Position numbers and translations under genes: made by a program
The notes under the pieces: model-generated
Seen by the model: the letters and a program-made list of their open reading frames with translations, nothing else
Database searches by the model: none
Told to the model about the DNA's origin: nothing
Assembly: GCA_003345545.1 (NCBI GenBank)
Contig: PRDH01000053.1
Span: 1 to 31,114 of the forward strand
Direction: 5' to 3'
Length of the DNA: 31,114 bases
Source of the DNA: Candidatus Thorarchaeota archaeon
GTDB taxonomy: Archaea; Asgardarchaeota; Thorarchaeia; Thorarchaeales; Thorarchaeaceae
Part shown: in pieces, positions 15,140 to 27,037 of the stretch
How positions within the stretch are numbered: the stretch's first letter is position 1
How the letters are laid out: every line of letters starts with the position of its first letter

Positions 15140-15796
15140 GTGCCGAATTACCTGGACTCACTTGATGACCTCCGTGATGGACTTGATACATTCATCGAGA
15201 AATGGTCAAACATTCAGAGGAAATCTGTGAAGGCGATTCAGGCGGTCACGAACACAATCATGCAGATTGAGCACTTGGATGGACCGCTGGGCAAGCTTGA
15301 GGGCTTCCAAAACCTTAGAGAGAACTGCAAAGGAATTCTGCTGGTAACTCTATATGATAATCTGGTCCCCTCTTTTGAGACCTCGATAAGAGAGTTCACT
15401 AAACTCATGCACATGTTTGAGAACTTGAGGCACTCCTCATCTACGATTCAGACACTCACGGAGTCAATGCGCGGCGACATTGAGGACTCACCTGAACTTG
15501 ATGACCTTGTTGGATTCCTCGATCTCATAATGATCAGTATTCGGGATATCCTCAACATGTACGAGCAAGAGTTTCTTGTTAAATTGACCATCTTCAGAGA
15601 CTTCGAGGAAGGTGCTATCGACATCGGCATAGTGAGCAACTATCTCACAATCTGGCTTGTAGAGCCGAATATCGAACCCAGTGCTCGTGACAAGCTCCTC
15701 AAAGATCTCGATGAGCACGTTGAGTTATTGCGGGATGTCTTCATGGGGAAGACTGGAATCAGATTGCCGGATGCCTACAAGAAAGCCGAACTCTGA
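15140..15796 (+). CDS. CINP/C1orf109-like alpha-helical protein (candidate eukaryotic signature protein)
   Basis: C-terminal LNMYEQEFLVKLTI...YLTIWLVEPNIE matches my recollection of CINP LEMYRKELLLKRTV...YLSMWLHQPYVE. N-terminal FIEKW...N motif and similar length. Confidence 0.7.
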   Translation: MPNYLDSLDDLRDGLDTFIEKWSNIQRKSVKAIQAVTNTIMQIEHLDGPLGKLEGFQNLRENCKGILLVTLYDNLVPSFETSIREFTKLMHMFENLRHSSSTIQTLTESMRGDIEDSPELDDLVGFLDLIMISIRDILNMYEQEFLVKLTIFRDFEEGAIDIGIVSNYLTIWLVEPNIEPSARDKLLKDLDEHVELLRDVFMGKTGIRLPDAYKKAEL

Positions 15797-23716: not shown

Positions 23717-24967
23717 ATGTTCAAGTTCCTGAAGTCTGACCCTACAAAGAAAGCCAAGAAATACGTCGAGAAGGCTCTGTTTGAGATAGAGGAGGGTTTC
23801 CCCCAGTATGCCAGTGTGGAGTTCGAGAAGGCAGCAAGACTGTTTCTCGAAAAAGACGAGATTGATTTTGCCGTGAAGTACTTCCGCGAAGCGTCGTATA
23901 CTGCCCTTGAGTCTAACGACCACACTAGATGTGCTGAGATGAAAGCGCTCGCAGCCGAATGCCTCATCATGGAAGGTCGATACGATGAAGGCGGCGGACT
24001 ATATTCTGAGTCCTCTGACCATCTATACCGTGAAAAGAAACTGCGTGCATCCAACCGATCGATTGGCATGGCTGTCATAGGCTATCTTGGTGCTAGAAAT
24101 TACGATACTGCAACAAACCTGTTGAAGAAGGCCGAGAAGAGAGTTGGTGAATTGTCGGGGAAGACTGATCCCATATATGACCTAGCAGAGTTGTGCGTGG
24201 AAATCCTCTGCGAGGGAGCTGATGTTTCCAAGGAGAGTTTCGAGAAAGTCGCACGAACCGCAAAAACAACGGCACCTGAACACTCACTCGTGGAGTTCGT
24301 CGTTGGTTCAGTTAGGCTTGCACTTGATACAGAAGTGACTCTCAGCTGGGCAGGTCAGGAAATGAATGAGGTCCCCGTGAAGACTCCAATCGAATTGGAA
24401 TTGCAGTTCAAATGCCCCACTCAAGTAAGAATCATTGATCATCGAGTATCTCTCTCTAATAGTGTCATCATAAAGAGAGAACCAGAGTTTTCATCAAGCC
24501 CTTCAAAGAACGAGTCTTGGCTGATTGAGTTCATTCCAGTTCTGAGCGGCTCGGGAACTATCGGTCCCTATACAGTCACTTTGGAGGGTGATAAGGTCCT
24601 TCTCCACAAGCACAGCAATAAGGTCGAGTTCATGATTGCACGAGCACCATCCGACTTGGACTTGAAAGTATCACCAGAGAGAGTATCCTGCTCTCTCGGA
24701 GACGAGGCCATCATTGAAGTGAATCTGAAGAATGTGGGTGACGGCCCAGCGGATAGCATCGTAATCACTACGAATTTGTCAGAGGGCCTTGAGATCTCCT
24801 TAGGTAACAAAGAGAAGGCAATCCACTTTCTTGGTAGTGGAGAGACCATGCACTTTCAAATCTTCGTGAGAGCCATCAAGCAAGGTGAGGAGCTAGTTAC
24901 TGTCCAAGCAGTGGATGGCAGAATTGGCCAAGAAGTTGCAAAAACGGCTCTTGTACGAGTCGGGTAG
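23717..24967 (+). CDS. SNAP/TPR-like alpha-solenoid fused to two C-terminal Ig-like beta-sandwich domains
   Basis: Helical repeats (ASVEFEKAARLF, AVKYFREA, AMAVIGYLGARNYDTA-type), then beta-rich segments (VNLKNVGDGPA, LGSGETMHFQIFV). No signal peptide or TM. Confidence 0.75.
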   Translation: MFKFLKSDPTKKAKKYVEKALFEIEEGFPQYASVEFEKAARLFLEKDEIDFAVKYFREASYTALESNDHTRCAEMKALAAECLIMEGRYDEGGGLYSESSDHLYREKKLRASNRSIGMAVIGYLGARNYDTATNLLKKAEKRVGELSGKTDPIYDLAELCVEILCEGADVSKESFEKVARTAKTTAPEHSLVEFVVGSVRLALDTEVTLSWAGQEMNEVPVKTPIELELQFKCPTQVRIIDHRVSLSNSVIIKREPEFSSSPSKNESWLIEFIPVLSGSGTIGPYTVTLEGDKVLLHKHSNKVEFMIARAPSDLDLKVSPERVSCSLGDEAIIEVNLKNVGDGPADSIVITTNLSEGLEISLGNKEKAIHFLGSGETMHFQIFVRAIKQGEELVTVQAVDGRIGQEVAKTALVRVG

Positions 24968-24971
24968 GACG

Positions 24972-25706
24972 CTACGGTTGACGACGCTTTCTCTGTATTT
25001 CTTCCCTGATACTGAGACAGGCGCCCATAACCTCTTGGATGGCCTCTTCCTCCTTGAAGATCTTAAGAAGATCGCCTGCTTCCTCTAGCCTATTCTGGGC
25101 AAGATTCTCACTGAAGTCCAGGAGCGTTTCTAGCCAGTCCCAAGTTGTTCTTCCAATGATTTTCTTTGCCTTCTCGATTCTCTCTTTGGCCTTGTCCATC
25201 CTCTCGATGGTGGCAAAGCCCATGGCAGCAAGTGAGAGATCTATTACAGCACGTTCTGCATTTCCATTGTCGATGGCTTTCTCAGCCGCCTTGTCATAGA
25301 GATTGCCCATATTCTGGGCGCATGTTAAGAAGTACTCGCGGTTTCCTATCCTGTGACACGAAAAGGCTGCCCAGAGATAGGCCTGTGCGGCTGTCTCTGT
25401 CATCCTTTCAAGTAGCGCTTCTTTTGCGGCATTCTCATACAATGTCAGAGCAGTGGCAAAGTCACTCGCTTGCCTATACTGAGTGGCTGCCTCAAGGTAG
25501 GCCGTCGCGGCAGCCTTGTGATCATCGTTCTCAACACGGTCTTCAGCATACATATGGTAATACTCTGCAGCCTTCTTGGTCATCTCAAGTGCACGATCGA
25601 GATAACAACCTGCAGCCTGTTTGAACTGGTTTGCTGCCTGGTAGTAGTTGTTGTTCTCCAAGAATTCATTGGCGAGGCGTTCCCATTGTGTGCAATCGTC
25701 TTCCAT
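24972..25706 (-). CDS. Alpha-SNAP/Sec17-like helical-repeat protein
   Basis: YYQAANQFKQAAGCY, DDHKAAATAYLEAATQYRQ and AAQAYLWAA show SNAP-type A-A-x2-[YF]-x2-A-[AG] periodicity. Confidence 0.7.
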   Translation of the reverse strand: MEDDCTQWERLANEFLENNNYYQAANQFKQAAGCYLDRALEMTKKAAEYYHMYAEDRVENDDHKAAATAYLEAATQYRQASDFATALTLYENAAKEALLERMTETAAQAYLWAAFSCHRIGNREYFLTCAQNMGNLYDKAAEKAIDNGNAERAVIDLSLAAMGFATIERMDKAKERIEKAKKIIGRTTWDWLETLLDFSENLAQNRLEEAGDLLKIFKEEEAIQEVMGACLSIREEIQRKRRQP

Positions 25707-25996: not shown

Positions 25997-26902
25997 TTAG
26001 GAGCCTCTGGGAAAACGATCGGAGCTGGCCGCGGTTCCCGGTATCGAGTACCAGCCAATGCCAGAGTAGTCATCCCAGATATTTCCGATACTGACTCCGT
26101 CGTCCCACTGATTCATACTTCCATCATCCTTGGCATTGCCATCCATGTTGCGCGCGAATCCACTCGAGTGGATTACCCAGCTCTGGCAACCAACATCAAT
26201 GTGTACTCCAAGTTTGTTATCGGTCACATTGCAGCGTGTGAGAGTGCAGTTATAGGAGAATTGGGACCAGAGTCCTAGTTCATTGTAGAACATCCTGTTG
26301 CTCTCAATGGTCGTTCTATTGGAGCATACGACACTAATGCCGTAAGTGGTGTTAAAGACTGTATTTCCTCTTATGGTGGTGCGTTGAGAAATGCTTGAGT
26401 TAATCCCCGCGCAAGTAGTGCTCACAAAACAATCCTGTACTACTACTTCACTGCAACCAAGGAACTCGATTCCTGAAATTCCTCCTTCAGTCCTGCATCT
26501 TTCTATGGTCGCACTATGGCAATTCCTCAGATAGATTGCCATCCCCCAGTAATATGCAGTTGCCTTGAGTTCGCAATCTCGAATAATGAATGGCGCTTCA
26601 ACATTTCTGATATCAATGCAAATGCCTTCTTCTACAATGCTCAGATTCTGAATGACATATGGATTGTCTATAGTCCCATTACCTGGCACTGAATACTCCA
26701 CAGTATAGTTCTGGAACTCACCGTCACCATCAATACGTATCGCATCATCGATATCGAGAATTGGAGATGTAGGGCCATCACCTGAATCAATGGGATTCTC
26801 AGTGTTTGTCATTAAGACATAGGAAAAGCCAGCAGCAGATGCCAGCACGACTACAAGAATAAGCCCTACCATCTTGTTTGTACCCCCCGGTGCACTGGCC
26901 AT
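25997..26902 (-). CDS. Membrane-anchored right-handed beta-helix protein (NosD/pectin-lyase-like)
   Basis: N-terminal TM, GNGTIDNPYVIQN, repeats of GI..S..xTIxxN, and GNIWDDY..D.FP at the C-terminus. Confidence 0.88.
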   Translation of the reverse strand: MASAPGGTNKMVGLILVVVLASAAGFSYVLMTNTENPIDSGDGPTSPILDIDDAIRIDGDGEFQNYTVEYSVPGNGTIDNPYVIQNLSIVEEGICIDIRNVEAPFIIRDCELKATAYYWGMAIYLRNCHSATIERCRTEGGISGIEFLGCSEVVVQDCFVSTTCAGINSSISQRTTIRGNTVFNTTYGISVVCSNRTTIESNRMFYNELGLWSQFSYNCTLTRCNVTDNKLGVHIDVGCQSWVIHSSGFARNMDGNAKDDGSMNQWDDGVSIGNIWDDYSGIGWYSIPGTAASSDRFPRGS

Positions 26903-27037
26903 GATTAACCACCTTCTCCAATGGCTCATACAGATGCAGCACTCTTACATTAATCTACTTCTAGACGCCGATACACATTGAATTCAAAGAAGAAGAGAAA
27001 GAGAATCCGTGGAATCCATCTCCGAAGCCAGCATTCT

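Follow-up and report, generated by a model that had tools for sequence, protein, structure and literature searches.

Within the membrane-fusion cycle, SNAP/Sec17 is regarded as a component exclusive to eukaryotes, and we found no report of SNAP relatives in Asgard archaea in the literature searched. A 31,114-nucleotide stretch of DNA from a Candidatus Thorarchaeota archaeon (contig PRDH01000053.1; this whole stretch is hereafter the window) raises the question of whether these archaea encode such relatives and, if so, in what capacity: it carries two convergent genes, P0001 (416 amino acids, positions 23717-24967, forward strand) and P0002 (244 amino acids, positions 24972-25706, reverse strand), which an earlier reading of the bare sequence (the sequence-only reading) had taken for a pair of alpha-SNAP-like proteins and a candidate proto-membrane-trafficking module. 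We find that the SNAP preference is real for both proteins, in sequence profiles and in predicted fold, and that neither is a working SNAP, because the parts that deal with membranes, SNAREs and NSF are missing. The explanation that we favor, and hold to be likely, is that P0001 and P0002 are single-copy genes, each transcribed independently of the other, that encode cytosolic SNAP-fold scaffolds.

SNAP kinship of P0001 and P0002

Each gene is delimited by its open reading frame, its orthologues and an AlphaFold2 model computed from the family alignment, and with well over 100 full-length orthologue clusters apiece, with conserved start positions, P0001 and P0002 are clearly real genes. Database labels call their homologues hypothetical or TPR repeat proteins. 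The orthologues are single-copy and share 51-94% identity for P0001 (family length 415-445 amino acids) and 63-98% for P0002. Both proteins are acidic (isoelectric point (pI) 5.3 for P0001 and 4.9 for P0002) and lack a hydrophobic (transmembrane or signal) segment, and they are therefore cytosolic. Near-identical homologues carry Thorarchaeota source names, and the archaeal marker genes of the window include those for an archaeal SAM synthetase and Nre.

The P0001 model (predicted local distance difference test (pLDDT) 92.7) has ten helices over residues 9-203 and, after them, two beta-sandwiches (residues 206-308 and 314-415). The sequence-only reading had described two Ala-rich helical proteins encoded 4 nucleotides apart, a description that holds for the locus once the C-terminal half of P0001 is recognized as beta-sandwiches; the alanine content of its N-terminal half is 11.2%. 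This half forms a ten-helix SNAP-fold domain (residues ~5-205, positions 23729-24331, forward strand), identified by VIA, by profile search against the PDB and by hhalign. In a VIA second look at the Foldseek hits, it matched residues 89-292 of Sec17 (9nly_H; Z 18.5, root-mean-square deviation (rmsd) 3.8 Å over 197 amino acids) and residues 86-275 of gamma-SNAP (2ifu; Z 17.7-17.8, rmsd 2.7 Å over 187 amino acids), HAP40 scored Z 16.1, and the top ten rows contained only the SNAP family or HAP40 (Z 13.8-18.5). A VIA search independent of Foldseek likewise returned gamma-SNAP (Z 17.7), the best other family being Pins (Z 14.9, a gap of about 3). The C-terminal bundle of SNAP, which is not built of repeats, is part of the match; as the match covers only the stretches of Sec17 and gamma-SNAP given above, the first two SNAP hairpins are missing from P0001.

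Foldseek itself, queried with the whole P0001 model, ranked the 1106-residue yeast TRAPPII chain 7u06_A first (E 4e-11). Large TRAPP subunits consist of an alpha-solenoid followed by Ig-like domains, and P0001 could be read as a miniature relative of these subunits (TRAPPC8-11/Trs120-130), a tether or guanine nucleotide exchange factor scaffold working with the TRAPP-core-like proteins of Thorarchaeota; protein-language features also put TRAPPC11 and TRAPPC8 clusters at 0.79-0.80, below the lead threshold of 0.9. However, the match to 7u06_A has template modelling (TM) scores of only 0.31/0.14 and an rmsd of 21.6 Å, no TRAPP chain appeared in the top 50 of the VIA second look (Z under 11.2, versus 16-18.5 for SNAPs), the Ig-like domains of P0001 are of the prokaryotic DUF11/CARDB type, and the Atlas has only two clusters that resemble it over its whole length, both archaeal and labelled Thorarchaeota and Promethearchaeota. 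We rejected TRAPPII as the closest structure to P0001, since the Foldseek result was not upheld in the VIA second look, and regard the reading of P0001 as a miniature TRAPP subunit relative as highly improbable.

The first Ig-like beta-sandwich of P0001, delimited by its DSSP strands, spans residues ~206-309 (positions 24332-24643), and the second spans residues ~313-416 (positions 24653-24964), both on the forward strand. In VIA, the second domain matched the Ig domain of lacto-N-biosidase, the MG domain of C3, TRAP-beta and fusexin domain III (Z 11.7-12.8, rmsd 2.2-2.7, ~100 amino acids), and the tandem matched the C-terminal barrels of transglutaminase/protein 4.2 as well as DUF11/CARDB arrays. 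The Atlas fold matches of the C-terminal half were DUF11/CARDB arrays (TM 0.43-0.48), Pfam DUF11 matched the second domain weakly (E 0.036), and the beta-sandwiches match the DUF11/CARDB/NPCBM_assoc families. The C-terminal half is a tandem of prokaryote-type Ig-like domains of the DUF11/CARDB/MG/TRAP-beta kind.

P0002 is modelled as an all-helical, SNAP-like solenoid of twelve helices (pLDDT 95.9; 16.8% alanine). With this model Foldseek ranked alpha-SNAP/Sec17 first (E 5e-5), and the VIA second look placed Sec17 chains on top (Z 15.2-16.0, rmsd ~4.2, 208-216 amino acids, Sec17 residues 47-290), with HAP40 at Z 14.8 and LGN at Z 14.7. The SNAP fold, a twisted hairpin sheet with a C-terminal globular helical bundle, is found in both P0002 and the N-terminal domain of P0001. 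Across 49 orthologues of P0002, Cys5, Cys34 and Cys117 are invariant and Cys230 is nearly so; Cys5 and Cys34 sit at facing ends of the first hairpin, and the conserved cysteines could form a metal or redox site.

The sequence profiles agree. Comparison by hhalign of the P0002 family alignment (A1) with an alignment of bona fide SNAPs (A3) scored 97.1% (E 6.7e-11, 108 columns) and paired the P0002 core, residues 10-119 (positions 25350-25679, reverse strand; also delimited by hmmsearch), with the central hairpins of true SNAPs (residues ~97-205), and the sole natural matches of the A1 profile in the PDB were SNAPs. For P0001, hhalign against SNAPs gave 79.7% with the family alignment (A2) and 96.8% with the same alignment widened by relatives from other Asgard families (A4); in the PDB, SNAP was the sole match of A2 under E 0.1, and gamma-SNAP was the top match of A4 (E 1.4e-8). 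Paralogy of P0001 and P0002 was rejected, A1 and A2 reaching only 26% in hhalign. The sequence-only reading had set a peptide, DDHKAAATAYLEAATQYRQASDFATALTLYENA, which corresponds to residues 61-93 of P0002, beside an alpha-SNAP segment: that segment does exist in alpha-SNAP, but HMMER pairs it with P0002 residues ~43-73 at a non-significant score, and the significant HMMER alignment joins P0002 residues 14-119 to alpha-SNAP residues 124-228 (chain 6ip1_E), later than that segment.

An hmmsearch with the A1 profile against a library of 1.84 billion representative proteins (E<=1e-3) returned 28 matches, five from the P0002 family itself and 23 from outside it. The latter were ten bona fide SNAPs (full-length or nearly so, PF14938 171-354 bits, E 6.5e-9 to 1e-3, including a SNAP named as such from a chytrid), ten long SNAP-type TPR array proteins and three generic TPR_10/12 arrays. 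SNAPs are by nature far scarcer than generic TPR proteins, so that ten SNAPs in 23 matches amount to a strong preference. As a negative control we used a generic TPR protein of 295 amino acids from the same genome (PF14938 42.6 bits, TPR_12 82 bits), whose 60 best PDB matches contained no SNAP and included consensus TPR, TONSOKU and LGN instead. Among the canonical TPR models of Pfam (TPR_1/2/8/12) none matched P0002, and P0001 reached only E 0.025 with TPR_12 and E 0.012 with TPR_19, far below the cut-offs. Profile-level homology to bona fide SNAPs was thus stronger than to other TPR families. On another contig (C44, L001:1141-2849, reverse strand), a gene for a small Ras/Arf-like GTPase of 233 amino acids lies immediately upstream of the gene of the control protein and in the same orientation, and the two may form a GTPase-plus-TPR operon.

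These results bear on the alternative that P0001 and P0002 are ordinary TPR scaffolds, whose SNAP likeness would be a shared Ala/aromatic repeat motif, due to convergence or common TPR ancestry, and would carry no specific meaning. Several observations weigh against the reading that we favor, most of them on the side of this alternative. PF14938, the SNAP family of Pfam, belongs to the TPR clan and cross-matches many TPR proteins; at E<=1 it also fires in ten of 14 control genomes, E. coli included, and other TPR proteins of the same genome outscore both P0001 and P0002. The two proteins miss its gathering threshold of 25 bits (22.9 bits, E 7e-5, for P0002 and 15.2 bits for P0001), and precomputed PF14938 matches exist on many of their orthologues, so that both families are borderline. 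Since the model is promiscuous, a Pfam score alone proves nothing, and we rejected the bit score of PF14938 as a criterion for kinship with SNAP. In the VIA search of representative chains, SNAPs tied with LGN/Pins and NASP as matches of P0002 (Z 12.6-14.0), and in the second look the Sec17 lead was slim, only ~1.2 Z over LGN. The sequence register of P0002 (offset ~87) is about one hairpin away from its structural register (offset ~46), and TPR-like repeats yield register-ambiguous alignments. SNAP-annotated TPR clusters are listed in non-Asgard archaea in the Atlas, which we treat as a lead only. Finally, the scaffold mechanism proposed below is drawn from the fold alone. Yet true SNAPs, a tiny fraction of TPR proteins, supply ten of the 23 remote matches, the generic TPR control from the same genome matches no SNAP, the P0001 N-terminal domain superposes on gamma-SNAP together with the non-repeat bundle at ~3 Z above other families, and neither protein reaches a canonical TPR model. 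We consider the ordinary-TPR alternative unlikely. The SNAP likeness noted by the sequence-only reading stands, since both proteins preferred SNAP over generic TPR in sequence profiles and in predicted fold.

SNAP parts and partners

The sequence-only reading went further and saw in the pair archaeal SNAP-fold adaptors for an AAA+ ATPase. In its fullest form, P0001 and P0002 would act together in loading SNARE-like coiled coils with a Cdc48/NSF-like AAA+ ATPase, as the forerunner of the 20S disassembly machine. SNAP being the closest known family for both proteins, the presence of two Cdc48-type ATPase genes in the genome and the remote SNAP-type array relatives that carry KaiC-like ATPase domains or adjoin a MoxR AAA+ gene all speak for such a module, but the functional parts of SNAP are missing. 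The true SNAPs that we retrieved have a hydrophobic N-terminal loop (FFGG/GWF/GGFF) and, ahead of an acidic tail, an LDxWKTxLL motif. Neither protein has the full 14-helix SNAP length with the N-terminal hairpin and the membrane-insertion loop (twelve helices in P0002, ten in P0001): what they lack is the first 45-90 residues of SNAP, with the hairpin that carries the hydrophobic membrane loop, and the first loop of P0002 reads ENNNY. SNAP engages NSF by a free acidic C-terminal tail with a penultimate hydrophobic residue, whereas the C-terminus of P0002 (...IQRKRRQP) is basic and variable among orthologues, and that of the SNAP domain of P0001 is capped by the Ig-like domains, which leaves no free tail. 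In the PDB profile alignment, the acidic P0002 has Asn, Ala or Glu, not basic residues, at the positions that align with the SNARE-binding lysines of alpha-SNAP. A conserved P0002 stretch, TWDWLETLLDF at residues 187-198 (T187 and W191 invariant; L192, L195 and F198 at least 90%), may echo the C-terminal motif of SNAP, in a position that depends on the uncertain register.

Candidate partners were sought across the genome, which is 93% complete. No SNARE domain (PF05739) scored above the cut-off in it, and the sub-threshold noise equalled that of control genomes; the two Cdc48-type ATPase genes are both on other contigs, unlinked to the pair. Our Asgard sample of 301 genomes from 30 families (76 genomes in the family of the window, one in its sister family and 224 others) yielded no full-length SNAP, the best matches being partial (49-58 bits) and mostly in long repeat proteins. 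One full-length SNAP, P0251 (PF14938 246 bits, L010:7001-7894, on a gene-dense contig of 15.6 kb from a sequencing run), was set aside as probably eukaryotic, not prokaryotic: its AMP-binding and PrpD neighbors are each split in two, which suggests introns and hence probably a eukaryotic contig. A prediction of a P0001-P0002 complex scored 0.00 (mark 0.32), which counts neither for nor against binding. We conclude that P0001 and P0002 are not working SNAPs. As to the proposed adaptors for an AAA+ ATPase, the SNAP fold is borne out, but the nearby ATPase and the NSF-engaging tail are missing; given the KaiC-like and MoxR remote relatives an ATPase link is conceivable, and nothing near either gene supports it.

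Distribution, gene order and predicted role

Members of the P0002 family were found in 70 of the 76 genomes sampled from the window's family and in the one genome of its sister family, and the other 224 Asgard genomes gave two marginal partial matches only (E 2e-6 and 8e-6), neither of which reached E 1e-6; as found, it appears confined to one order, Thorarchaeota. The P0001 family, searched with a broad profile, is full-length and single-copy in 186 of the 301 genomes, in 11 of the 30 Asgard families (source names of the relatives include Lokiarchaeota, Hodarchaeota and Hermodarchaeota labels), and was not found in others, for example f5 (0/28), f14 (0/11) and f27 (0/11).

In the window, the stop codons of the two convergent genes (TAG at positions 24965-24967 for P0001, CTA at 24972-24974 for P0002) are separated by the 4-nucleotide spacer GACG (positions 24968-24971), read directly from the sequence, so close that the two transcripts must meet or overlap at their 3' ends. 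The pair is adjacent and convergent in about 68 of the 70 genomes of the window's family, the exceptions being G063 (a gap of 1.2 kb) and G149 (separate contigs), and the matched stretches lie ~7-70 nucleotides apart in most of these genomes. This conserved adjacency is the further point in favor of a joint ATPase-loading module, but it is part of a larger stretch of syntenic housekeeping genes (prolyl-tRNA synthetase, HMG-CoA reductase, P0002, P0001, AlaX-like gene). In the sister family the pair is split by 6.7 kb containing five unrelated genes, with P0002 beside the HMG-CoA reductase gene and P0001 beside the AlaX-like gene. At six loci read from four other Asgard families, P0001 relatives lack a P0002-like neighbor, and no functional partner recurs there (peptidase M24, ferredoxin-like, aldo-keto reductase, SAM synthetase and PAS kinase genes were seen). 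Being convergent, the genes cannot be read on one transcript; convergence, the wider synteny and the sister-family split together indicate that the tail-to-tail position is inherited gene order, with at most a 3'-end transcript overlap, and no evidence of a module. The conservation of the pair thus holds within the family of the window and lapses beyond it, and the proto-membrane-trafficking module of the sequence-only reading is unsupported on this account and on the others: the genes are convergent and non-paralogous, their synteny is inherited, no SNARE was found in the genome, Cdc48 is unlinked, and the SNAP loop and tail are missing. We accordingly give the joint loading of an ATPase onto SNARE-like coiled coils very little chance. 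A looser version, in which both families are survivors of the archaeal lineage behind SNAP/Sec17 and act as substrate adaptors, passing clients of helical or coiled-coil form on to unfoldases of the Cdc48 type, a SNAP-NSF system before SNAREs, we deem improbable, if slightly less so.

From the fold, the solubility, the strong conservation and the single-copy status, a role as protein-binding scaffold or adaptor is predicted as the most likely one for both proteins. In the explanation that we favor, P0001 is an N-terminally shortened SNAP domain, with the later hairpins and the C-terminal bundle kept, fused to two DUF11/CARDB Ig-like domains, and P0002 is a free-standing twelve-helix SNAP-like solenoid, found in Thorarchaeota only. 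SNAP holds SNARE bundles and HAP40 holds huntingtin; in each of the two archaeal proteins, the grooved face of the twisted hairpin sheet would, judging from the fold, hold a helical or extended partner, and the Ig-like domains of P0001 would add a second binding platform. Both proteins probably descend from the SNAP-type TPR proteins of archaea, a stock that may later have given rise to the eukaryotic adaptor.

Several neighboring genes are recorded here for their own sake. Between the HMG-CoA reductase gene and P0002, the window encodes a beta-helix protein of the NosD-like kind, hydrophobic in a segment at its N-terminus (positions 25997-26929, reverse strand); a Thorarchaeota genome that is more distant (L009) lacks the gene at this point, and the gene is therefore a lineage-specific insertion into the syntenic block. 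A CINP/C1orf109-like gene (positions 15140-15796, in the segment 13178-15796 of the window, P0001 being at 23717-24967) lies 8-20 kb from P0001 in most genomes of the window's family. In another Asgard family (f22; L015, L019), it lies ~3 kb (2.6-4.6 kb) from the P0001-like gene in ten of the 12 genomes that have both, with one gene of 714-725 amino acids between the two. The archaeal SAM synthetase (MAT) gene, which in the window is two genes upstream of the CINP-like gene, directly follows the P0001-like gene in family f21 (L017). The MAT, CINP-like and P0001-like genes appear to be what remains of an old gene block of Asgard archaea, with phyletic patterns that overlap only partly. Just upstream of the P0002 orthologue of the sister family is a gene of 121 amino acids with a weak match to the Pfam KxDL motif (L011:7371-7736), the KxDL family being a BORC/BLOC-1 subunit family in eukaryotes.

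Comparison with known systems

A single-copy family conserved across many Asgard lineages, for which SNAP is closest in both profile and fold, is a concrete candidate for the ancestral stock of SNAP, and it places the SNAP fold in archaea without detectable SNAREs or NSF. It is also a caution that SNAP-likeness by itself is no evidence of vesicle trafficking in Asgard archaea. The SNAP family (alpha/beta/gamma-SNAP and Sec17; PF14938; PDB 2ifu, 1qqe, 9nly, 9nlu, 6ip1) is the best match of both proteins in sequence profile and structure. Like SNAPs, P0001 and P0002 are soluble and acidic and form a twisted sheet of Ala/aromatic helical hairpins that ends in a helical bundle. Unlike SNAPs, they are short of N-terminal residues (~45 in P0002 and ~85 in P0001, hydrophobic membrane loop included), lack the acidic or hydrophobic C-terminal tail that binds NSF, fall below the Pfam threshold and are encoded in a genome in which no SNARE was found, and the two Ig-like domains of P0001 are found in no SNAP. 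The TPR domains of the LGN/Pins type (PDB 4a1s, 5a7d) form a generic TPR superhelix and are the best non-SNAP structural match (Z 14-14.9), but neither family matches them at the level of sequence profiles, and they lack the SNAP C-terminal bundle that P0001 matches.

The arrangement of P0001, TPR followed by Ig, recurs in archaeal multi-domain SNAP-type TPR proteins (P0247, P0248, P0252, P0254, P0261, P0262, P0265 and others), which have Ig domains of the DUF11/BatD/TRAP-beta type and, outside the family itself, give the P0002 profile its best matches (E 4e-15 to 5.5e-4); some were traced to archaeal-looking contigs. Unlike P0001, they are 750-1800 amino acids long (850-1800 for the seven named) with long TPR arrays, and about half (P0247, P0252, P0254, P0261, P0262 and P0265, most of those named) end in a KaiC-like DUF7504 or DUF835 domain. 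The P0248 gene is followed by a MoxR-type AAA+ gene and an FG-GAP beta-propeller gene (L013:6001-9554), a layout reminiscent of Bat/MoxR operons.

HAP40 (huntingtin-associated protein 40; PDB 6x9o, 8vlx) has been described as SNAP-derived (PMC7725122). It differs from P0001 and P0002 in being restricted to eukaryotes, tied to huntingtin and without a sequence-level match to either, and the analogy is a functional one only; like the two archaeal proteins as we read them, it is a SNAP fold turned into a subunit that only binds, with neither NSF nor SNAREs involved.

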